From Alphaproteobacteria bacterium (GTDB taxonomy: Bacteria; Pseudomonadota; Alphaproteobacteria; JAPYRI01): a stretch of 64,000 bases of DNA. The stretch spans positions 6,275 to 70,274 of the forward strand of contig JAPYRI010000001.1 of assembly GCA_029941135.1 (NCBI GenBank), read 5' to 3'. The notes below the pieces were generated by a model, which was given only the letters and a program-made list of their open reading frames with translations, was not told the origin of the DNA and did not search any database. Numbering within the stretch: the stretch's first letter is position 1; each line of letters begins with the position of its first letter. Positions 7,633 through 42,198 of the stretch are shown piece by piece. The translations under genes were made by a program, and so were the position numbers.

Positions 7633-8004
7633 ATGGTCACGACTTCGGCGGCTGACTCCAATATGACCGATCGCGAACTCATGACCATGGGAGATATGGT
7701 CCGCATGTTACCCGTGTTCGAGGGCTTTGATCACGAGAGCATCGTCTCCGTCGCCGAAGAATGCGCGACCTTGCTGGACACCGATGACGGGTTGGATCAA
7801 GTATTGGATATGGTCGCAAATAGTCTCGCCGCACGCTTGCACGAAACCGCCTATGCGATTTGCTGCGATATTGTCGCCGCCGATGGCAACGCCGACCAAG
7901 AAGAACTGCGCATTCTTGAAATGGTTCGACACCGGCTGGACGTAGACCGTTTAGCGGCTGCCGGGATTGAGCGCGGGGCCCGCGCCCGCCACATGAAACT
8001 CTAG
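7633..8004 (+). CDS. TerB-like (tellurite-resistance TerB / DjlA N-domain family) small protein.
   Basis: 123 aa, acidic and helical. Shows the TerB-like pattern …TAYAICCDIVAADGNADQEELRILEMVRHRLDVD…. Confidence 0.5.
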   Translation: MVTTSAADSNMTDRELMTMGDMVRMLPVFEGFDHESIVSVAEECATLLDTDDGLDQVLDMVANSLAARLHETAYAICCDIVAADGNADQEELRILEMVRHRLDVDRLAAAGIERGARARHMKL

Positions 8005-8010
8005 GCCCGA

Positions 8011-8673
8011 TCAGCCCAACTCAGCAACAAATTCGGCAATTCCAGCAATCGCCTGCTGCCAATTTTGGTCCTGGGTGCGGCCAGATTTCTTGCGCGGCTT
8101 TAAATCGTGATCGCCGTCCTCGAGCCACAAAAAGTGGATGTGGGAGCTAAGGTCATACTCAGCAACTTGATCACATGTGCCGAAGGGGTCGCGGCTGCCT
8201 TGCACCACCAACATGGGCGTTTGCAGAGCCTTAAGATGTTCGGTCCGTAGTTTCTCCGGCTTTCCCGGCGGATGAAAAGGATAGCCCAGACAAACGACCC
8301 CCGCGACCGGCACACCAGAGTCAGATGCAGTTGCTGCGGCCATGGAGGCAATTCGTCCCCCCATGGACTTGCCACCGATAACCAGTCGATCCGCCGGGCC
8401 AAGGACGTCGATCACCCGAGCCCAGGCATCCAGCAAAACCGGCGGGCGGTCAGGACCACGTTTTTTTCCATCTACGCGGCGCCCGGCCATATAAGGAAAC
8501 TCGAAGCGCGCCACACGTACCCCGTGCGCACCGAGCGCACCCGCAAACGTTGTCAAAAATGGACTGTCCATGGGAGCGCCCGCCCCATGGGCCAAGACCA
8601 GTGTGCGTCCGGAATTAAACCCCGACCCGCCACCTGGTCCGTCAAACAGGAAATTCACCCCCTGTTCACTCAC
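8011..8673 (-). CDS. Alpha/beta-fold hydrolase (dienelactone-hydrolase / KANL3-Tex30-like predicted hydrolase).
   Basis: 220 aa. G-x-S-x-G nucleophile elbow (IGGKSMGGRIASM), an HGAGAPMDSP motif, and late Asp/His residues (…QGSRDPFG…GDHDLKP). Confidence 0.6.
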   Translation of the reverse strand: MSEQGVNFLFDGPGGGSGFNSGRTLVLAHGAGAPMDSPFLTTFAGALGAHGVRVARFEFPYMAGRRVDGKKRGPDRPPVLLDAWARVIDVLGPADRLVIGGKSMGGRIASMAAATASDSGVPVAGVVCLGYPFHPPGKPEKLRTEHLKALQTPMLVVQGSRDPFGTCDQVAEYDLSSHIHFLWLEDGDHDLKPRKKSGRTQDQNWQQAIAGIAEFVAELG

Positions 8674-12217: not shown

Positions 12218-13312
12218 TCAGTTTGCCCCGCCAATGCGCCGATACAGAAATTCTGGTGGCGATTCACCTGATTCTTTTTTCGCAATCTGCTTGACCTGAT
12301 CGTGATGCGGCGACAACTCGCAAACCGGGTCGGTCACTGCTGCATCGCCAGTAAGCGCGAAAGCCTGACACCGGCATCCCCCCCAATCCAGTTCGCGCCG
12401 ATCACAAGACTGACACGGTTCAGGCATCCAGTCGATACCGCGAAAATGATTTAGGGCGGCGGACTTTTGCCAAATATCTGCAAGCGTACGATCGCGCAGG
12501 GAGTCAAAAGTGAGCCCCGGCAAATCCTCGGCCGCGTGGCACGGTAAAACCTTACCATTGGGTGTCACATTTACAAATTGCCGTGCCCACCCCCCCATGC
12601 ATGACTTAGGACGCCGGGCGTAGTAATCCGGCACCACATAGTCAATCACAAGACGGCCCTTTAAACGCTCACGGGCCGCCTCAACAATATTTGTCGACCG
12701 ATCCAGTTGCGCGCGAGTCGGGATGAGAGCCGCCCGATTCCGGAGCCCCCAGCCGTAATACTGCACATGCGCCACCTCAAGCCGCTGGGCGCCAAGCTCT
12801 ACCGACAGGTCGATCAGCGCTTCCAAATCATCCAAGTTTTGACGATGCATGACGGCGTTCACAGTCAAAGGCAAGCCGATTTCACCAACCAAGCGACCAA
12901 TTTCGATTTTTTTCTCAAGACTGTTTGGGTAGGCGCTGATGCGATCGGCGTTATCAGCTTGCGCCGCTTGAAAACTCAACTGCACATGTTGAAGTCCGGC
13001 CGCCGCCAGCCGGATCAACCGATCTTTGTTCAGCAGCACCCCAGATGTGATCAGATTGCAGTAGAGATCAAGCCCCTCGCAATGGGCCACTAGTTTTTCC
13101 AAGTCCTGGCGCACGGTCGGCTCACCACCGGAAAAATGTATCTGCAGCACACCCATCTCTGCTGCCTGGCTAAATATTGATTTCCAGGTCTCCGTATCCA
13201 TTTCCTGGCTGGCGGTTAGCAGCTGCAGCGGGTTGGAACAATAGGGGCACTGCAACGGACAGCGGTGGGTCACCTCGGCTAGCATGGCAAGGGGCGGGTC
13301 TATTGAGGTCAT
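12218..13312 (-). CDS. pqqE: PQQ biosynthesis radical-SAM peptide cross-linking enzyme PqqE.
   Basis: 364 aa. CxxxCxxC (CPLQCPYCSNP) near the N-terminus and a C-terminal SPASM-type Cys-rich region. Gene order is pqqABCDE. Confidence 0.9.
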   Translation of the reverse strand: MTSIDPPLAMLAEVTHRCPLQCPYCSNPLQLLTASQEMDTETWKSIFSQAAEMGVLQIHFSGGEPTVRQDLEKLVAHCEGLDLYCNLITSGVLLNKDRLIRLAAAGLQHVQLSFQAAQADNADRISAYPNSLEKKIEIGRLVGEIGLPLTVNAVMHRQNLDDLEALIDLSVELGAQRLEVAHVQYYGWGLRNRAALIPTRAQLDRSTNIVEAARERLKGRLVIDYVVPDYYARRPKSCMGGWARQFVNVTPNGKVLPCHAAEDLPGLTFDSLRDRTLADIWQKSAALNHFRGIDWMPEPCQSCDRRELDWGGCRCQAFALTGDAAVTDPVCELSPHHDQVKQIAKKESGESPPEFLYRRIGGAN

Positions 13313-13599
13313 GCGTCAATAACACCCTTATCGGCAAAATCCTGCAACATATGAACGACATCCCCGCCGATCTGCGCGCGCGGCGCCGCGAAATCTTCGG
13401 CTAGAGCATCGATGATCCCGCCCACGTTCGCCACACCGTCACATTCGCGCACAATGGCCAACGCCACCTGGTCGAGCACATACATGCGCTCTGGCGCCAG
13501 TATCACCCACTGATCCCGTGGATCATCAAATTTAAGCCGCACTCCTGTGGGCAATCGGGGAACGCTAGTTTCATCAATAATGCGCCGATCGGTCATCAT
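13309..13599 (-). CDS. pqqD: PQQ biosynthesis peptide chaperone PqqD.
   Basis: 96 aa. Position, size and ATGA overlaps with both pqqC and pqqE fit PqqD. Confidence 0.85.
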   Translation of the reverse strand: MMTDRRIIDETSVPRLPTGVRLKFDDPRDQWVILAPERMYVLDQVALAIVRECDGVANVGGIIDALAEDFAAPRAQIGGDVVHMLQDFADKGVIDA

Positions 13600-14366
13600 T
13601 CCTTATCCGGAACAAATGCACCGGGTGGGATGTGCCCAGGCTCCACATACGCGTGATAAAGCGCATCCAACTGCGCCCATAGTACACCCGTCTTGAAAAC
13701 CAAGGCGTCGATCACCCCCTGTTGCTGGCTGGGTTCTCGTGCATGGCGAAGCACATAGTCGAGACCAAACTCTACGTCCTTTGGTGCTTCCTCTAACCGT
13801 TTCCGAAAATAGGAGAGAGTATCGTCATTAGCAAACGCGTAGTGCTCCAGTAATCCGGCAATACGTTGGCGGTGAATGTTGGGGGCAAACAATTCGGTCA
13901 AAGACGATGCGATAGCTTCGAGCAATGGCCGCTCACGCACGAAGCGTACATAGGCCTCAACGGCAAATTTGGTCGCCGGCAGCGCGCCATCGGTCGACGA
14001 AACATAATTGCGATCAAGACCCACGCCTTCCGCCAGCACCAGCCAGCGCTCGAGGCCGCCTTCGCCCGAGCGGTTGCCATCATGATCCTCGATTCGGCCG
14101 CGCCATTCCCGCCGCAGGTCGACGTCGGTTATTTGCGACATCAACGCTGCGTCCTTGCGCGGTATGGCGTTCTGATAGCAAAACCGATTTAACACCCAGG
14201 CTTGAACTTGTCCCTGGTTGAGCGCGCCGCCATGAAGTTTCTGATGGAAGGGATGTTTGTCGTGGTAGCGCTCGGCGCCGATCGTGTGGAGCCGCCGCTC
14301 CAGTTCTTCGGACGTCAGCGCTTTGGTCAGAGGCATATTTCCATCCCGTCGAAGGCAATCTCCCAT
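13596..14366 (-). CDS. pqqC: Pyrroloquinoline-quinone synthase PqqC.
   Basis: Conserved PqqC core (…HPFHQKLHGGALNQGQVQAWVLNRFCYQNAIPRKDAALMS…). The ATG at 14334-14336 (MPLTKAL…) is the more likely start, because the annotated start would overlap pqqB by 40 nt. Confidence 0.9.
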   Translation of the reverse strand: MGDCLRRDGNMPLTKALTSEELERRLHTIGAERYHDKHPFHQKLHGGALNQGQVQAWVLNRFCYQNAIPRKDAALMSQITDVDLRREWRGRIEDHDGNRSGEGGLERWLVLAEGVGLDRNYVSSTDGALPATKFAVEAYVRFVRERPLLEAIASSLTELFAPNIHRQRIAGLLEHYAFANDDTLSYFRKRLEEAPKDVEFGLDYVLRHAREPSQQQGVIDALVFKTGVLWAQLDALYHAYVEPGHIPPGAFVPDKE

Positions 14367-15253
14367 CCCAATGCCTCAACCTTATGACGCTCGGGTGAGT
14401 CGGCCAGCAGGGTGGGATTCGTATTATTAATATGCACGAACACCTTGCGGACAACATTCAATCCTTCGAGCGCCGCAATTGCGCCCTCTGGCCCCGACAT
14501 GCTGATGTGCCCCATGCGCTGTCCGGTCTTGATCCCTACTCCCGCCACCTGCATCTCGTCGTCTTGCCACAAAGTTCCGTCGAAAAGTACGAGGGGTGCG
14601 CTTTGGAGACGCGCGGCTAGTTCCGGCGGCACCGACGCACAGCCGGGAATATAGAAAAAATATTCTCCCCCTTCCATCGACTGAATTCTGAGACCAATTG
14701 TATCCTCGCTCTGGGAGCCAAAATTGGGTCCAGCATCCGGGTTTTCCAGGTAAAGGGCAACTTTTCCGGGGACGACAAATGGCTCTATAATCATGCCGCC
14801 GCTTTTGCCTTCGGGTGTTTTGAGCTCGAACGATTGCCCTAATGTCATGGGAAGACGCGCAACCAATTCCGAGTTAAGCACGTTAAAGACACTGTTCGCG
14901 CGCAGGGTGCCATGCACCCGCTCGGTTGCGTAAAGCACCAATGGTGCGGATTCCCGCAAAGTCAGCAGACCTGCAATGTGGTCAACATCCGCATTGGTGA
15001 CAATGACGCCACTGATAGGACTGTGACGTAACCCATTCTTCGGATGAAGAGCGGGTGTGCTGTTAATTTGATGGCGAAGGTCAGGGGATGCGTTAAACAA
15101 ATACCAGTGTTCGTCGTCGGCGGTGACCGCCAAAGAGGACTGGGTGCGCGCGAGCGCGTCCCCGGTCCGGGCTTGGTTACAAGCGTCGGTACTGCAGTTC
15201 CACTGGGGAAAACCGCCGCCCGCGGCCGATCCTATGACGACAATGCGCAGCAC
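14327..15253 (-). CDS. pqqB: PQQ biosynthesis protein PqqB (metallo-beta-lactamase fold).
   Basis: 308 aa. Starts MLRIVVIGSAAGGGFPQWNCSTDACNQAR…, the characteristic PqqB N-terminus. Confidence 0.85.
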   Translation of the reverse strand: MLRIVVIGSAAGGGFPQWNCSTDACNQARTGDALARTQSSLAVTADDEHWYLFNASPDLRHQINSTPALHPKNGLRHSPISGVIVTNADVDHIAGLLTLRESAPLVLYATERVHGTLRANSVFNVLNSELVARLPMTLGQSFELKTPEGKSGGMIIEPFVVPGKVALYLENPDAGPNFGSQSEDTIGLRIQSMEGGEYFFYIPGCASVPPELAARLQSAPLVLFDGTLWQDDEMQVAGVGIKTGQRMGHISMSGPEGAIAALEGLNVVRKVFVHINNTNPTLLADSPERHKVEALGWEIAFDGMEICL

Positions 15254-15340: not shown

Positions 15341-15373
15341 AAATGTAAAACGCCAGCCGACAAAAGGCTGGCG
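15341..15373 (-). terminator. Stem-loop with U-tract between pqqA and pqqB, an attenuator/partial terminator.
   Basis: On the minus strand the RNA reads CGCCAGCC-UUUUGUC-GGCUGGCG followed by UUUUACAUUU. That is an 8-bp GC-rich stem plus U-run, 20 nt downstream of the pqqA stop. pqq operons in other bacteria have a comparable pqqA-pqqB terminator. Confidence 0.45.
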
Positions 15374-15394
15374 CTTCCACAAATTGAAATCTTT

Positions 15395-15472
15395 TTACAG
15401 CTCGGCGCAGACGTAGCAGTTGATTTCCATGCCGATGCAAACTTCTTTAACTTTCGGGGTGGTCCAAGCCAT
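15395..15472 (-). CDS. pqqA: PQQ precursor peptide PqqA (25 aa).
   Basis: I translated this by hand from the reverse strand: ATG at 15470-15472, TAA at 15395-15397, giving MAWTTPKVKEVCIGMEINCYVCAEL. The conserved Glu…Tyr pair (E-I-N-C-Y) is the cross-linked PQQ backbone. It is too short for the 60-aa ORF track. Confidence 0.8.
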   Translation of the reverse strand: MAWTTPKVKEVCIGMEINCYVCAEL

Positions 15473-15567: not shown

Positions 15568-16503
15568 TCAGCCGCCAAACAGATGGCCGGGAGATATTCG
15601 ATCCAATATTTCCGGCTCGTTCGGTGGAATGAAGGTCATGCCGACCGAATCGGCTAAAGGCGCAAATTTTTCCTCCGTGACCAAAGAATCAATCACGTCA
15701 TTGACCTGCGCCAAAAGATCTGGACGGCTTTTGAGGCCGACGAATCCCATATTAAATCCCAACGCATGGCGATAATTTGTTGCGCGCAATTGTGTATCCG
15801 GATGTTTCCGGCGATAGGCGTCAAACCGGTGCAGTTCGATCAAAATGGCATCGAATGCACCCTCTTCCAGGCGCGAAAGTATACCGCTTTGTGGCACCAC
15901 ATGAATGACCCGGCTGGCCATATAACCAGCCCGATAGGCCATGAAAATCGTGTCGGTCAAGGTTCCCTGTTCGGCGCCAAGACTCAATCCATTAAGGTCA
16001 CTCAAGGTTTCAATCAGCCGTCCCCATCCCTTTGGGCCGACAATGACCTGCAAGGGAGCATGATGGTAAGGTCGGCTGGGCGCCAAGACACCAAGTTCAA
16101 CAAACTGGTGCCGGGTAGCAGGATTTTGACCTTCATGTCCCGGCAGCAGCGCAGTTTCGGACGCAGGCTCCGCCAATGCACCACCGAACATGGGATAGCC
16201 GGCAACCAGGTCGCACAGTCCGGCAGATATCAGAGCGTTGGCCTCACGGTCAGGGAAGCTTTCTTCTTCGTTCTCGGTTTCAAACCATTGAATTGTCAGT
16301 TTCTTGCCAAGTGCTGCGGCCACGGCCGCGGCCACTTTCAAATCGAATCCACCTTGCTCAGAACCGTGCTTCCACGAATACGGGTCGCTGTTTTCTTCCA
16401 AACAAACTGAAAGTGTGTCGGCCAAAGCAGCCTTCGGAAGGGCAAACATCAGTCCACATACTGCCAAAGCCAGATGGGTGAAATAGCGCGCGTTCGATGT
16501 CAA
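15568..16503 (-). CDS. Quinoprotein-dehydrogenase-associated periplasmic substrate-binding-like protein (MoxJ/XoxJ family, SBP_bac_3 fold).
   Basis: 311 aa with a signal peptide. The N-terminal motif LSVCLEENSDPYSW…GFDLKVAAAVAAALGKKLTIQWFE matches the MoxJ-like pattern (L-x-V-C-x-D-x-N-x-P-F-S … GF … LG). It lies beside a cytochrome c and the pqq operon. Confidence 0.6.
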   Translation of the reverse strand: MTSNARYFTHLALAVCGLMFALPKAALADTLSVCLEENSDPYSWKHGSEQGGFDLKVAAAVAAALGKKLTIQWFETENEEESFPDREANALISAGLCDLVAGYPMFGGALAEPASETALLPGHEGQNPATRHQFVELGVLAPSRPYHHAPLQVIVGPKGWGRLIETLSDLNGLSLGAEQGTLTDTIFMAYRAGYMASRVIHVVPQSGILSRLEEGAFDAILIELHRFDAYRRKHPDTQLRATNYRHALGFNMGFVGLKSRPDLLAQVNDVIDSLVTEEKFAPLADSVGMTFIPPNEPEILDRISPGHLFGG

Positions 16504-16844
16504 TTTCTACCTCCCGAGCGCACATAGGCCCACAGGCTTTCGAGCTCGCCCGGGAGCAGCATATCGCCCCATGCCGGCATGTCTCCTGTGCCGTCGGTCA
16601 CCGATTTCTTAAAACGATCAAACTGATCCACTGGGAATTTACGCAGGTCGAAGCTGGAGTTTCCAGCGTTGACCATATTTGGGCCGTGACATTGGGCGCA
16701 AAGCTGTTGATATGCGGGCTTGCCTTTGGCGGCTTCGGTATCCACATGACTGCCCGCTCCTGCCGGTGACGCCAAAACTGCGAAAACAACGGCCACCGCA
16801 AACATATTGTTCAACCACTCTTTTTTCACAAACACTTTACTCAT
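16500..16844 (-). CDS. Mono-haem class I c-type cytochrome (likely electron acceptor for a quinoprotein dehydrogenase).
   Basis: 114 aa with a signal peptide. Single CxxCH (CAQCHG) and a downstream Met ligand region (GTGDMPAWG). It overlaps the MoxJ-like gene by 4 nt. Confidence 0.7.
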   Translation of the reverse strand: MSKVFVKKEWLNNMFAVAVVFAVLASPAGAGSHVDTEAAKGKPAYQQLCAQCHGPNMVNAGNSSFDLRKFPVDQFDRFKKSVTDGTGDMPAWGDMLLPGELESLWAYVRSGGRN

Positions 16845-16861
16845 ATGGATTACTCGGAAGA

Positions 16862-16935
16862 ATTGAGATTGGAGCGGGTGAAGGGAATCGAACCCTCGTC
16901 GTAAGCTTGGGAAGCTTCTGCTCTGCCATTGAGCT
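16862..16935 (-). tRNA. tRNA-Gly (anticodon CCC).
   Basis: Minus-strand read: GCGGGTGTAGCTCAATGGCAGAGCAGAAGCTTCCCAAGCTTACGACGAGGGTTCGATTCCCTTCACCCGCTCCA. The anticodon loop is TTCCCAA, the T-arm is GGTTCGATTCC, and the CCA is genome-encoded. The cloverleaf was folded by eye. Confidence 0.8.
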
Positions 16936-17145
16936 ACACCCGCCCGATGTCCTCAACAAAAAGTGGGCACTCAGCGTCGTATCTTGCCGCGATTCCGTTG
17001 CCGCTGCCGAACATCATATCGGCTCATATGGTCGCCGCAAGGGAACTATTGCATCTCGCAACAACGTGCTTGGTTTGGCTGGACCTCTATAAAAGAGCCC
17101 AATTTTAGCCGTTTTACTCTCTTGTCTGAATATGTGACAAAATTT

Positions 17146-17172
17146 TTAGCACTTTCGGCCCTTAAGTGCTAA
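17146..17172 (+). promoter_or_regulatory. CIRCE operator (HrcA binding site) of groESL copy 1.
   Basis: TTAGCACTT-TCGGCCCTT-AAGTGCTAA. It matches the CIRCE consensus TTAGCACTC-N9-GAGTGCTAA apart from one symmetric substitution pair in the arms (C to T in the left arm, G to A in the right). Confidence 0.75.
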
Positions 17173-17796: not shown

Positions 17797-19449
<1,653 letters not shown>

Positions 19450-26829: not shown

Positions 26830-28858
<2,029 letters not shown>

Positions 28859-39788: not shown

Positions 39789-40814
39789 TTGCAAAACCAC
39801 CGCCAAAACATACCATCGGGCAGCATTCGAGTAATCTACCCTTTTGACCATGTTTTTTGTATGAACATACACCCGCCAATAAAGTTTCTGGACCCGCGAA
39901 CGACTGTTGACGGCAGTCCTCGCGCGACAGTCAAGCTCATGCATCTGGAAACCTTGTGGTTCAATACTGGCACGCTCTGCAATCTTGAATGCAAAGATTG
40001 CTATATCGAGTCGAGCCCCAAGAATGATCGCTTGGTTTACCTGACCGCCAACGAAATCTCGGTTTTTTTGGATGAGATCGAACGCGATCATTTGGGCACA
40101 CGGGAAATTGGCTTTACCGGCGGCGAGCCTTTCATGAACCCCGATATCGTCGCCATGATGACAGATTGCCTCGAGCGCGGGTTCGAAGTGTTGGTGTTGA
40201 CCAACGGCATGCGGCCGATGATGAAGCTCGATACTCAATTGTTGGCGCTGAACTGCCGATTCGGTGCCAAACTTAGGTTGCGTGTGTCCCTCGATCACTA
40301 CAGCAAATCGCGCCACGAAGAGTTGCGCGGTCCACACTCGTGGGCGCCGACCATTACCGGCTTGACGTGGTTGTCAGATCAAGGATTCCGTGTCCACATG
40401 GCCGGCCGTACGGTTTGGGGCGATGACGAAGCCACAATTCGCAATGGGTTTGCCCATCTATTTTCGCAGATGAACCTCAACATCGACCCTCACAGCCCAA
40501 CACAATTGATATTGTTTCCGGAAATGGACGAAGCTGCGCCGGTGGCCGAAATAACCACCTCCTGCTGGTCTCTCCTCAGCGTCGATCCAAATTCTCTCAT
40601 GTGCGCAAGCTCACGCATGGTTGTGAAACACAAGGGCGCCGACCGGCCTACCATACAGGCCTGCACCCTGCTGCCCTACGACCCGCGCTTTGCGCTCGGA
40701 TCCTCTTTGCGCGCCGCCACTTCCGACCCGGTTGCCCTTAATCACCCCCATTGCTCCAAATTTTGCGTGCTTGGCGGCGGCGCCTGCAGCGTTTCAGAGG
40801 TCTCCTCGACTTGA
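39789..40814 (+). CDS. Radical SAM/Cys-rich-domain protein (TIGR04167/ArsS-like family).
   Basis: CxxxCxxC (TGTLCNLECKDCY) in the first 70 residues. The C-terminal roughly 100 aa holds six further Cys (…CWSLL…CASS…ACTLL…HCSKFCVLGGGACS). The stop codon is TGA. The likely start is the ATG at 39861 (MNIHPP…) or 39939 (MHLETL…). Confidence 0.6.
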   Translation: MQNHRQNIPSGSIRVIYPFDHVFCMNIHPPIKFLDPRTTVDGSPRATVKLMHLETLWFNTGTLCNLECKDCYIESSPKNDRLVYLTANEISVFLDEIERDHLGTREIGFTGGEPFMNPDIVAMMTDCLERGFEVLVLTNGMRPMMKLDTQLLALNCRFGAKLRLRVSLDHYSKSRHEELRGPHSWAPTITGLTWLSDQGFRVHMAGRTVWGDDEATIRNGFAHLFSQMNLNIDPHSPTQLILFPEMDEAAPVAEITTSCWSLLSVDPNSLMCASSRMVVKHKGADRPTIQACTLLPYDPRFALGSSLRAATSDPVALNHPHCSKFCVLGGGACSVSEVSST

Positions 40815-40934
40815 CCAGGAACAAAGGAGGGTATACGAATTAAATCTCGTGGTGATTTGAGCCGACCGGCTTGCGGCCACGTAAAATAAACCGCTAAAAG
40901 GTCGAGATGGCACCCAGCCCCCCCCGACCGCCCC

Positions 40935-40989
40935 GGTCGATTTTTTTGTGGCCGGGTATAATTTGGCCGACCAAAAGGGAGCCAATGCC
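40935..40989 (+). promoter_or_regulatory. Candidate SAM-II (metA-element) riboswitch in the metZ leader.
   Basis: CGAUUUUUUUG–UGGCC-GGGUAUAAUUU-GGCC–GACCAAAAGGGAGCC directly precedes the metZ ATG. A 5′ U-tract, a short hairpin, then a 3′ A-tract plus SD is the SAM-II pseudoknot/triplex architecture. SAM-II is known upstream of metA/metX/metZ in alphaproteobacteria. No covariance model was run. Confidence 0.4.
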
Positions 40990-42198
40990 ATGTCGCCCTC
41001 AAATGAGAGCAACAACAAGACCGCAATGCGGCCGCGCACGGCCCTGGTCCGCGGCGGTCTTCACCGATCGCCGTTGGGGGAAACCTCGGAAGCGATATTT
41101 CTCACTTCGGGCTTTGTTTACGACGACCCGGAAGTGGCCGCGGCGCGCTTTAGTGGCGATGCGGATGGCTATACTTATTCCAGATTGCGCAACCCAACAG
41201 TCGCCATGTTCGAAGAACGCATGGCTCTGATCGGTGGCACTGAGATCGCCCGCGCGACCGCGAGCGGCATGGCTGCCGTAGCGGCATCTTTCCTGTCGCA
41301 AGTGAAAGTGGGAGATCATGTGGTTGCGGGTGAAGCTTTATTTGGCTCTATCCGGGTGATCCTGGAAGATGTCCTGCCCCGATTCGGCGTTGACCTCACC
41401 ATGGTCAATAATACGGACCTCGAGGCTTGGAAACAGGCGGTCCAGCCGGAAACCACATTGTTTTTTTTGGAATCCCCTTCCAATCCCACATTAGGGATCA
41501 CGGACCTCCAGGCCGTGGCCGATATTGCCCATAATGCCGGGGCAAAAATCATTTTGGATAATGTGTTCGCCACCCCTGTTCTGCAACGTCCGGTCGAATT
41601 TGACATCGATATCACGATTTATTCGGCAACCAAGCACATTGACGGCCAAGGCCGCTGTTTGGGTGGCTGCATATTATCCGATCAAAAGTTTCTGGATGAT
41701 TTTCTTGATCCCTATTTGCGTCACACCGGACCTGCTCTCAGTCCCTTTAACGCCTGGGTGCTGTTGAAAGGAATTGAAACGCTGGAACTTAGAGTTGAGG
41801 CCGCCTGCCAGAATGCGCAGCATGTTGCGGATTTTCTCGCAGAACAGCCAGGGGTCACAAAGGTATTATACCCGGGGCGGCAAGATCATCCCCAGCACAC
41901 GCTTGCCATGCGCCAAATGAGCGCCGGCGGGACACTCGTTTCATTCGAGTTACCCGGGGGTCGCGAGCGTGCGTTTGCGTTTTTAAAGGCGCTCAACTTG
42001 ATCGATATTTCCAACAACCTGGGCGATACTAAGAGTCTGATCACCCATCCGGCCAGCACCACCCATCAACGCCTGTCACCCGAAGATCGCGCCGCCCAGG
42101 GTATTGGCGAAGGTCTGGTTCGCCTGTCAGTCGGATTGGAAGATGCGGATGATCTGACTGACGATATTGGCCAAGCGCTAGCGGTGGCGGCGCTCTAA
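40990..42198 (+). CDS. metZ: O-succinylhomoserine sulfhydrylase (Cys/Met-metabolism PLP-dependent enzyme).
   Basis: 402 aa from the ATG at 40990 (SD GGGAG 8 nt upstream). The ORF-track start at 40948 is a GTG inside the putative riboswitch. The PLP-lysine region is …IYSATKHIDGQGRCLGG…. Confidence 0.8.
   Translation: MSPSNESNNKTAMRPRTALVRGGLHRSPLGETSEAIFLTSGFVYDDPEVAAARFSGDADGYTYSRLRNPTVAMFEERMALIGGTEIARATASGMAAVAASFLSQVKVGDHVVAGEALFGSIRVILEDVLPRFGVDLTMVNNTDLEAWKQAVQPETTLFFLESPSNPTLGITDLQAVADIAHNAGAKIILDNVFATPVLQRPVEFDIDITIYSATKHIDGQGRCLGGCILSDQKFLDDFLDPYLRHTGPALSPFNAWVLLKGIETLELRVEAACQNAQHVADFLAEQPGVTKVLYPGRQDHPQHTLAMRQMSAGGTLVSFELPGGRERAFAFLKALNLIDISNNLGDTKSLITHPASTTHQRLSPEDRAAQGIGEGLVRLSVGLEDADDLTDDIGQALAVAAL

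Follow-up and report, generated by a model that had tools for sequence, protein, structure and literature searches.

A 64,000-nucleotide stretch of DNA from a marine alphaproteobacterium (contig JAPYRI010000001.1, positions 6,275 to 70,274; hereafter the window) carries two overlapping genes, one for a small class I cytochrome c and one for a protein resembling a periplasmic binding protein (PBP), next to the operon for synthesis of pyrroloquinoline quinone (PQQ). The pair is likely the detached back half of an operon that encodes a PQQ alcohol dehydrogenase, a cytochrome c and a PBP-like protein, in which the two smaller products would have electron-acceptor and chaperone or docking roles, the enzyme itself being encoded at another locus. 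The initial annotation of this DNA had described a cytochrome gene and a MoxJ-like gene between a tRNA-Gly and pqqA, and all four were found in their places on the minus strand (Table 1), where the order is tRNA-Gly(CCC), cytochrome c, PBP-like gene and pqqABCDE, with gaps of 25 nt from the tRNA to the cytochrome gene and 95 nt from the PBP-like gene to pqqA.

The dehydrogenase linked to the pair in other genomes

In other genomes the pair is associated with a single kind of enzyme. In a scan of one genome per species, 302 relatives were recovered, the best 80 were fetched, and 78 of these had readable upstream DNA; in all 78 the order is PQQ dehydrogenase, cytochrome c, PBP-like gene, bearing out the earlier suggestion that the two genes are accessories of a PQQ-dependent dehydrogenase. 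The triad is found in Bradyrhizobium, Stellaceae, Vineibacter, Minwuia, Kordiimonadales, Xanthobacteraceae, one Burkholderiales metagenome-assembled genome (MAG) and one Acidobacteria MAG, and the same order is seen in Sneathiella and Sneathiellaceae loci. The linked dehydrogenase is a methanol/ethanol-family member (714 bits with TIGR03075), and its nearest solved structures are 6zcv, 6zcw and 1flg (441–465 bits, compared with 333–370 bits for XoxF), the first and last of which we take to be PedE and ExaA; MxaF is also more distant. The structure 6zcw is PedH, and the second Asp of the D-x-D signature marks lanthanide enzymes (PMC11996626). The linked enzyme carries this motif as D-Y-D (Asp-x-Asp).

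The surroundings of the triad differ between groups. In the Bradyrhizobium-type locus L004, a gene for lanmodulin (L004:7267-7653, minus strand; NF053806, 180 bits), a protein with four DPDxDGT EF hands, is found upstream of the triad and divergent from it, as at the equivalent place in 32 other loci, and in loci of this type xoxF and a XoxG-type cytochrome gene are located 3–6 kb downstream of the triad. SoxYZ-like and metallo-beta-lactamase genes are seen further upstream in L004, an arrangement that also occurs in the ped cluster. Near the triad of two loci, another, divergent PQQ dehydrogenase (~40% identity) is encoded (L026:10750-12393 and L050:5188-6867), that of L026 having DWD in place of DYD.

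A solo dehydrogenase in the same MAG

The initial annotation had noted that no dehydrogenase accompanies the pair here, and this holds. A tblastn search of the window with two Bradyrhizobium PQQ dehydrogenases gave a best E of 0.39, and Pfam scans of 20 of the larger window open reading frames (325–920 aa) detected no PQQ domain; together these rule out an enzyme hidden in the window. Beyond the tRNA, and still inside this stretch, are groES/groEL.

A candidate was instead located on another contig of the same MAG. The cluster of the window PBP-like protein includes HIF09222.1 from a “Sneathiellales bacterium” MAG, and the dehydrogenase cluster found with the Kordiimonadales enzyme includes HIF08594.1 from a MAG of the same name; the former is on DUDI01000148 and the latter on DUDI01000039, both of assembly GCA_012959345.1. 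DUDI01000148 is 99.9% identical to the window, and DUDI01000039 is, piece by piece, 98.7–100% identical to four longer contigs (L098-L101). The metagenome assembly GCA_029935995.1 also holds both a locus with this solo dehydrogenase and one with the orphan pair, that is, the pair with no adjacent dehydrogenase. By tetranucleotide profile, the contigs with the solo dehydrogenase correlate with the window at 0.94–0.96, which puts them within the range of the orphan loci, next after the same-strain contigs and L001 and higher than any locus with a linked dehydrogenase.

The solo dehydrogenase has 556 aa and scores 636 bits with TIGR03075 (cut-off 480). Its neighbours are genes for an RND pump, a DUF1330 protein, a small cupin, an MMPL transporter, an FAA hydrolase and a thiolase, and no cytochrome c or PBP gene was found beside it in the gene neighbourhoods of its contigs. 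It has the vicinal Cys-Cys (in RIVCCG) and a PYDYDG stretch in which DYD is kept, from which lanthanide use may be predicted. In trees it branches with the operon-linked enzymes of Sneathiella, Minwuia and Kordiimonadales, mirroring the trees of the pair, and its nine cluster-level relatives at 80–84% identity, followed by a gap to 70% or less, echo the nine clusters of orphan PBP-like proteins. The triad is intact in named Sneathiella and Sneathiellaceae genomes. The N-terminus of the solo enzyme, MKFSIASRVSAAIAAMVFLTGCEQ (L098:10001-10070), has the lipobox LTGC and is predicted to be that of a lipoprotein; ordinary signal peptides are present in the operon-linked enzymes of Bradyrhizobium and Kordiimonadales.

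The best reading of these data is that the dehydrogenase was relocated and not lost, the ancestral operon having been split. The initial annotation had offered loss, relocation or an accessory-only module as explanations; relocation is the one favored by the finding of an orthologous dehydrogenase, standing alone, on a different contig of the MAG, and loss is disfavored by it. The solo enzyme would then be the client of the pair.

The clade with an orphan pair

The arrangement in the window is not an isolated one. All contigs encoding a PBP-like protein 64–99% identical to that of the window have groEL-groES and then, divergently, tRNA-Gly, cytochrome c and PBP-like gene with no dehydrogenase, and at least five distinct lineages (64–78% amino-acid identity) share this order; the next relatives, at 51% identity or less, are all accompanied by a dehydrogenase. 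A metagenome scan for further close relatives added one locus only. The orphan clade, to which one NCBI record gives the name Sneathiellales, forms a monophyletic group in the neighbour-joining tree of each protein, with Minwuia/Kordiimonadales as its sister.

That the dehydrogenase is absent from the locus could be taken to mean that it was deleted and that the pair is a decaying remnant heading for loss. However, every orphan locus retains both reading frames whole, across synonymous divergence that has reached saturation. In the one unsaturated pair of sequences, the ratio of nonsynonymous to synonymous substitution rates (dN/dS) is 0.18 for the cytochrome and 0.17 for the PBP-like protein; with synonymous sites mostly saturated elsewhere, the other estimates are no higher than 0.22, those for the cytochrome within the clade being 0.06–0.22. 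All family-invariant residues of both proteins are kept throughout the clade. As dN/dS is low and the invariant residues are kept, both genes are in use and under purifying selection, and a pseudogene or remnant is ruled out on the same grounds. With the PQQ synthesis genes also intact and an intact orthologous dehydrogenase in the same MAG, the idea of decay is almost certainly wrong.

What varies in the clade is the slot 3' of the PBP-like gene, which is filled by pqqABCDE (the window, L002, L003, L088 and L089, all with an identical pqqA peptide) or by a gene for a 690-aa TonB-dependent receptor (L001, L086 and L087). The receptor gene is placed between the PBP-like gene and a convergent ABC transporter, exactly where pqqABCDE is found in the other loci. 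The best solved relative of the receptor is the PQQ importer PqqU/YncD (E 4e-15, full length); it scores, however, 63 bits against a cut-off of 1200 with the PqqU model NF041535. Five residues of PqqU contact PQQ (K274, R304, R365, N477 and R536), and PqqU has been reported to be nearly absent from Alphaproteobacteria (PMC12124388). In a pairwise alignment one of the five, K274, is matched, as Arg. The receptor was thus rejected as a PqqU orthologue, on the failed cut-off and the contact residues not kept; a swap of PQQ synthesis for PQQ import in the sister lineages is possible from these similarities but unproven.

Linkage of the triad to pqq genes is recurrent, as it is seen in several kinds of locus. 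In Stellaceae/Rhodospirillales-type loci (L016, L021, L032, L033, L046 and L068), pqqCDE and pqqB flank the triad at 3–5 kb; in L040, pqq genes 3' of the PBP-like gene look broken (split tblastn hits); and among the Sneathiellaceae loci (L091-L093), pqqEDCB(A) is divergently adjacent to the dehydrogenase gene in one genome (L091). The contents of the slot in the orphan clade and the pqq genes flanking the triad in Stellaceae-type loci and L091 would also suit a different explanation, by which the pair is a general PQQ-handling module that serves any periplasmic quinoprotein, for example by holding or delivering the cofactor, and hence travels with pqqABCDE. The PBP-like protein keeps two positions of a carboxylate clamp, described below, and PQQ is a tricarboxylate. 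Against this, the pair outside the orphan clade is always tied to one clade of dehydrogenases (78 of 78), four of the five PQQ-contact residues of PqqU (PMC12124388) are unmatched in a receptor that falls far under its cut-off, and PQQ binding by the PBP-like protein is hypothetical. A general role in PQQ handling is therefore considered unlikely, and a split operon with a specific enzyme is preferred.

Families of the two proteins

The window cytochrome has a signal peptide, a CAQCH heme site and a downstream MPxW region for the Met ligand, passes PF13442 (gathering score 27), and keeps 23 of 23 invariant columns of its family, including C49, C52, H53 and M89. Its domain of ~90 residues is c6/CcoP-like: the matches of the family profile include CcoP domains, cytochrome c6 and, at E 3e-13, the heme domain at the C-terminus of 1kv9, a quinohemoprotein alcohol dehydrogenase, with cytochrome cL (2d0w) reaching an E of only 7e-4. 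Neither TIGR03872 (MoxG cL) nor TIGR03874 matched the window cytochrome at E ≤ 0.01, and TIGR03872 gave 23.5 bits for a Bradyrhizobium family member (cut-off 147.8). With the PedF/ExaB model TIGR04494 (cut-off 122) the window cytochrome scored 25.7 bits and other family members 43.2 and 37.8 bits. The protein is predicted to accept the electrons of a PQQ alcohol dehydrogenase.

The PBP-like protein is similarly placed outside the available models. It scores 22.5 bits with TIGR03870 (MoxJ; cut-off 258.1), 27.1 bits with TIGR03871 (“MoxJ_2”, quinoprotein-dehydrogenase-associated substrate-binding protein; cut-off 212.15) over residues 31–104 only, 25.2 bits with the LAO-binding model (cut-off 256) and 23.6 bits with the Pfam model SBP_bac_3 (PF00497; gathering score 26.4). 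Among 83 family members, weak matches were found to the LAO model in 77, to TIGR03871 in 55 (best E 1.4e-8) and to MoxJ in 6 (counted at E ≤ 0.001). Membership in MoxJ, TIGR03871, PedF and cL was rejected, all scores being far under the cut-offs. In an exhaustive profile search of 1.84 billion representatives, 155 proteins were found at E ≤ 1e-30 and 340 at E ≤ 1e-10. The family is small, sharply bounded and described by no curated model, and it was met only beside genes for PQQ alcohol dehydrogenase and cytochrome c. The PBP-like protein is ~60 aa longer than usual and has a family-specific insertion and an invariant pair of cysteines (34 and 97).

The initial annotation had named the pair xoxG/xoxJ-like, with the second protein as a MoxJ-family member, and these names are not upheld: both the cL and PedF classes fail for the cytochrome, the MoxJ-type scores are far under cut-off, and the partner enzyme is ExaA/PedE/PedH-like and not XoxF- or MxaF-like. 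A true accessory set of a XoxF-type lanthanide methanol dehydrogenase would be expected to resemble the triad in its order of enzyme, cytochrome and PBP, as in xoxFGJ, and TIGR03871 is nominally the top NCBIfam match of the PBP-like protein. The curated cut-offs already contradict such an identity, however, as do the poor profile match to cL and the greater similarity of the linked dehydrogenase to ExaA and its relatives than to XoxF. The cytochrome encoded beside xoxF in Bradyrhizobium, which is XoxG-type and passes TIGR03874 at 272 bits, is a different protein from the triad cytochrome, and triad and xoxF-xoxG coexist there as separate units. A xoxG/xoxJ identity is thus very unlikely.

The PBP-like family is labelled “ABC-type amino acid transport substrate-binding protein” in the source annotation, which raises the further alternative that it is the binding protein of an ordinary amino-acid-type ABC importer, the cytochrome being a general respiratory carrier and the proximity of pqq accidental. 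Its best matches in the PDB, by sequence and fold, are amino-acid binders, with E 5e-12 for the family profile compared with 0.006 for XoxJ and 0.008 for MxaJ. Formally, then, the protein groups with ordinary amino-acid binders, an outcome that the initial annotation had regarded as refuting its proposal. An ABC transporter is also encoded beyond pqqE, although this one is sulfonate/nitrate/taurine-like, has its own NMT1-type binding protein and forms one operon with purU; a Ped-type or PQQ-linked role was rejected for it, since it is a generic transporter of that type. The gene lists or gene order read for ~90 loci show no permease or ATPase genes together with the pair.

The putative ligand site also points away from transport of amino acids. 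The Escherichia coli glutamine-binding protein (GlnBP) was used for comparison, in which Gly68 and Arg75 form the carboxylate clamp and Asp157 binds the alpha-amino group. In a profile alignment (hhalign), the Gly68 and Arg75 positions are conserved in the PBP-like family and the Asp157 position is taken by Leu. Nor would a transport protein be expected to show such strict synteny with the gene of a PQQ dehydrogenase or to be fused to cytochrome c, and the transport alternative is regarded as highly improbable. As part of a split dehydrogenase operon, the PBP-like protein is predicted, by analogy, to be a maturation chaperone and/or docking partner of the enzyme.

Coupling and fusion of the pair

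The 4-nt overlap in the window is TTGA at 16503..16500, formed by the TTG start of the PBP-like gene and the TGA stop of the cytochrome gene. The TTG is preceded at 6 nt by a GGGAGG Shine-Dalgarno sequence and opens a complete Sec-type signal peptide (MTSNARYFTHLALAVCGLMFALPKAALA|D). In the public annotation of 99.9–100% identical DNA (L094-L097), an internal ATG was chosen, giving 293 aa, a truncated signal peptide and no overlap. The TTG reading is supported by the family, since an in-frame start overlaps the cytochrome stop by the same 4 nt in 92 of 97 related loci, and the view that the two genes form a translationally coupled operon gains support in this way.

A CxxCH motif lies ahead of the PBP region in 14 of 149 listed family representatives (P0353, P0366, P0377, P0392, P0394, P0400, P0402, P0408, P0410, P0417, P0418, P0425, P0444 and P0466). 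In the seven of these fusions that were read, one or two cytochrome c domains of the same family (two in P0392 and P0400) are followed by a low-complexity linker and then the PBP domain. The fusions argue for physical joint action of the two proteins, and the near-universal overlap and the natural fusions together indicate that cytochrome and PBP-like protein work as a unit.

In the proposed mechanism, the cytochrome would take electrons from the reduced PQQ of the dehydrogenase, and the PBP-like protein, as counterpart of MxaJ, XoxJ and PedG, would bind the dehydrogenase and thereby either admit PQQ and the metal or dock the cytochrome. The start/stop overlap would set a fixed proportion of the two proteins, making them one working unit. 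In the orphan clade, cofactor synthesis, insertion or docking, and electron output would thus be encoded together, with the enzyme encoded apart.

A more specific version can be put forward tentatively, and with low confidence: that cytochrome and PBP-like protein form an obligate module of two parts, joined in one polypeptide in some bacteria, which docks on the mature dehydrogenase as an electron-output adaptor, and that the PBP-like protein is not solely a transient insertion chaperone of the MxaJ kind. As such a module would be self-contained, it could be encoded anywhere, here behind a tRNA promoter and next to the cofactor-supply genes, the enzyme gene being located among substrate-related genes. 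If true, this would mean that the “J” proteins of quinoprotein clusters have an electron-transfer role, so far one of several suggestions.

Several observations weigh against the explanation as a whole. The PBP-like protein fails the MoxJ and TIGR03871 models, its profile is nearer to amino-acid binders than to XoxJ/MxaJ, and the fold comparison does not single out MxaJ/XoxJ. The biochemical roles of both proteins are deduced for a family known from sequence alone. The solo enzyme is connected to the pair through MAG binning, co-occurrence and composition, and co-transcription with the tRNA is proposed from a conserved promoter-like motif and the short gap. The fusions to cytochrome domains would suit stable docking better than a transient chaperone of the MxaJ type.

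The tRNA-Gly and transcription of the pair

The tRNA-Gly is 100% identical and in the same place in L001, L002 and L087, which with the window make up the four aligned orphan-clade loci. The element CTTGCG-17-TATGAT upstream of the tRNA has both hexamers largely invariant across these four, and a consensus promoter scanner made no call at it. For the cytochrome gene, no plausible start of transcription other than this putative promoter is apparent, and, as the gap between tRNA and cytochrome gene is so short, the simplest reading is that the pair is probably transcribed from the tRNA promoter.

The initial annotation had viewed the tRNA as a possible point of rearrangement, for which no direct support was obtained: no second copy of the tRNA 3' end was found in the window, no GC anomaly was seen, and the tRNA-cytochrome junction is conserved across the clade. 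A horizontal island at the tRNA was rejected for lack of a GC shift and a 3'-end repeat; integrases were not searched for.

Layout of the locus and other features of the window

The features of the locus are collected in Table 1. The pqqABCDE genes are in canonical order and all five exceed the NCBIfam equivalog cut-offs. The hairpin that follows pqqA (−25.1 kcal/mol, z −2.6 compared with shuffled sequences) may act as a terminator or attenuator.

Table 1. Coordinates of the pair, the adjoining tRNA and pqq genes in the window, and of the receptor genes in sister loci
Feature	Position	Strand	Basis or remark
Promoter-like element CTTGCG-17 nt-TATGAT (putative), ~70 nt upstream of tRNA-Gly	17013..17041	-	read from sequence
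tRNA-Gly(CCC)	16870..16943	-	ARAGORN; Rfam RF00005 66.8 bits
Class I cytochrome c, 114 aa	16500..16844	-	PF13442 46.9 bits
PBP-like protein, 311 aa, type II periplasmic binding protein fold	15568..16503	-	
pqqA, PQQ precursor peptide MAWTTPKVKEVCIGMEINCYVCAEL	15395..15472	-	TIGR02107 40.4 bits, cut-off 20
Hairpin and U-rich tract, terminator-/attenuator-like, directly 3' of pqqA	15344..15381	-	RNA fold
pqqB	14327..15253	-	TIGR02108 395 bits, cut-off 245
pqqC	13596..14366	-	TIGR02111 365 bits, cut-off 240
pqqD	13309..13599	-	TIGR03859 79.9 bits, cut-off 46
pqqE	12218..13312	-	TIGR02109 566 bits, cut-off 381
TonB-dependent receptor	L001:11082-13154		
TonB-dependent receptor	L086:10820-12889		
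TonB-dependent receptor	L087:7759-8379		cut by contig end; tblastn match 7843-8379

In the intergenic region from which tRNA-Gly and groES/groEL diverge, a CIRCE inverted repeat (TTAGCACTT-N9-AAGTGCTAA) is located upstream of groES/groEL at 17146-17172, and it is kept in L001, L002 and L087. A second groEL (26830-28503, minus strand) is 69% identical to the first (17800-19449) and lies in a segment of ~20 kb (~19500-39700) that separates the first groEL from a radical-SAM gene at 39789. The segment also has genes for an alpha/beta hydrolase, TetR, ChaC, CMD, a polyketide cyclase, methyltransferases and spermidine synthase; it is missing in L002 and L087, where groEL abuts the radical-SAM gene, and its groEL-adjacent part is common to L001. 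Further on, a SAM-II (SAM_alpha) riboswitch (40839-40917, plus strand; Rfam RF00521, 72.8 bits) precedes a gene for a PLP enzyme of Cys/Met metabolism (40948-42198), consistent with an alphaproteobacterial origin of the DNA.

Comparison with known systems

For decades it was unclear what the binding-protein-like J and G genes of quinoprotein clusters (MxaJ, XoxJ, PedG) do, and only in 2025 was MxaJ assigned as a PQQ-insertion chaperone. The present family, a sister family without a curated model, offers three natural experiments on this question, namely a split-off pair under selection, near-universal translational coupling, and fusions, which together point to joint action of cytochrome and PBP-like protein as one unit. 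There are also consequences for annotation, as these PBP-like proteins are labelled as amino-acid transport proteins, and as hunting for a “missing” dehydrogenase beside accessory genes can mislead when the enzyme may sit elsewhere.

Like MxaJ/XoxJ, the present protein has a type II PBP fold, resembling their solved structures, and is encoded beside a PQQ dehydrogenase and its cytochrome. It differs in being a non-member by hidden Markov model, no closer to them in sequence and fold than to amino-acid binders, and in that its PBP domain is sometimes fused to cytochrome c; we know of no such fusion of MxaJ or XoxJ. In comparison to the mxa and xox clusters, the cytochrome is c6/CcoP-like and not cL, and the enzyme is ethanol-type and not MxaF or XoxF. 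MxaJ has been shown experimentally to be a chaperone that binds MxaF directly and lets PQQ enter (PMC12276312), and by analogy PQQ-insertion chaperoning of this kind is the most likely function here.

The ped cluster of Pseudomonas putida (pedE-pedF-pedG) is similar in its set of a dehydrogenase, a small cytochrome c and a periplasmic binding-protein-like gene, and in the kind of enzyme, as the nearest structures to the linked dehydrogenase are those named above (6zcv, 6zcw and 1flg). PedG- and PedF-like genes flank pedE and, in Methylorubrum extorquens AM1, exaF, and the P. aeruginosa cluster has no pedG (reviewed in PMC12997753), so that there too the gene of the accessory PBP need not stand beside that of the enzyme. 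Unlike their ped counterparts, the present cytochromes fail the PedF model (25.7–43 bits compared with 122), and the present PBP-like protein fails TIGR03871, is longer, and has its own insertion and the invariant Cys pair.

A third comparison is with type II quinohemoprotein alcohol dehydrogenases (for example ADH IIB, PDB 1kv9). The cytochrome profile matches their C-terminal heme domain, and a cytochrome of this kind thus directly receives the electrons of a PQQ alcohol dehydrogenase in those enzymes. They carry it as part of the dehydrogenase polypeptide, whereas in the present family it is separate or fused to the PBP-like protein.

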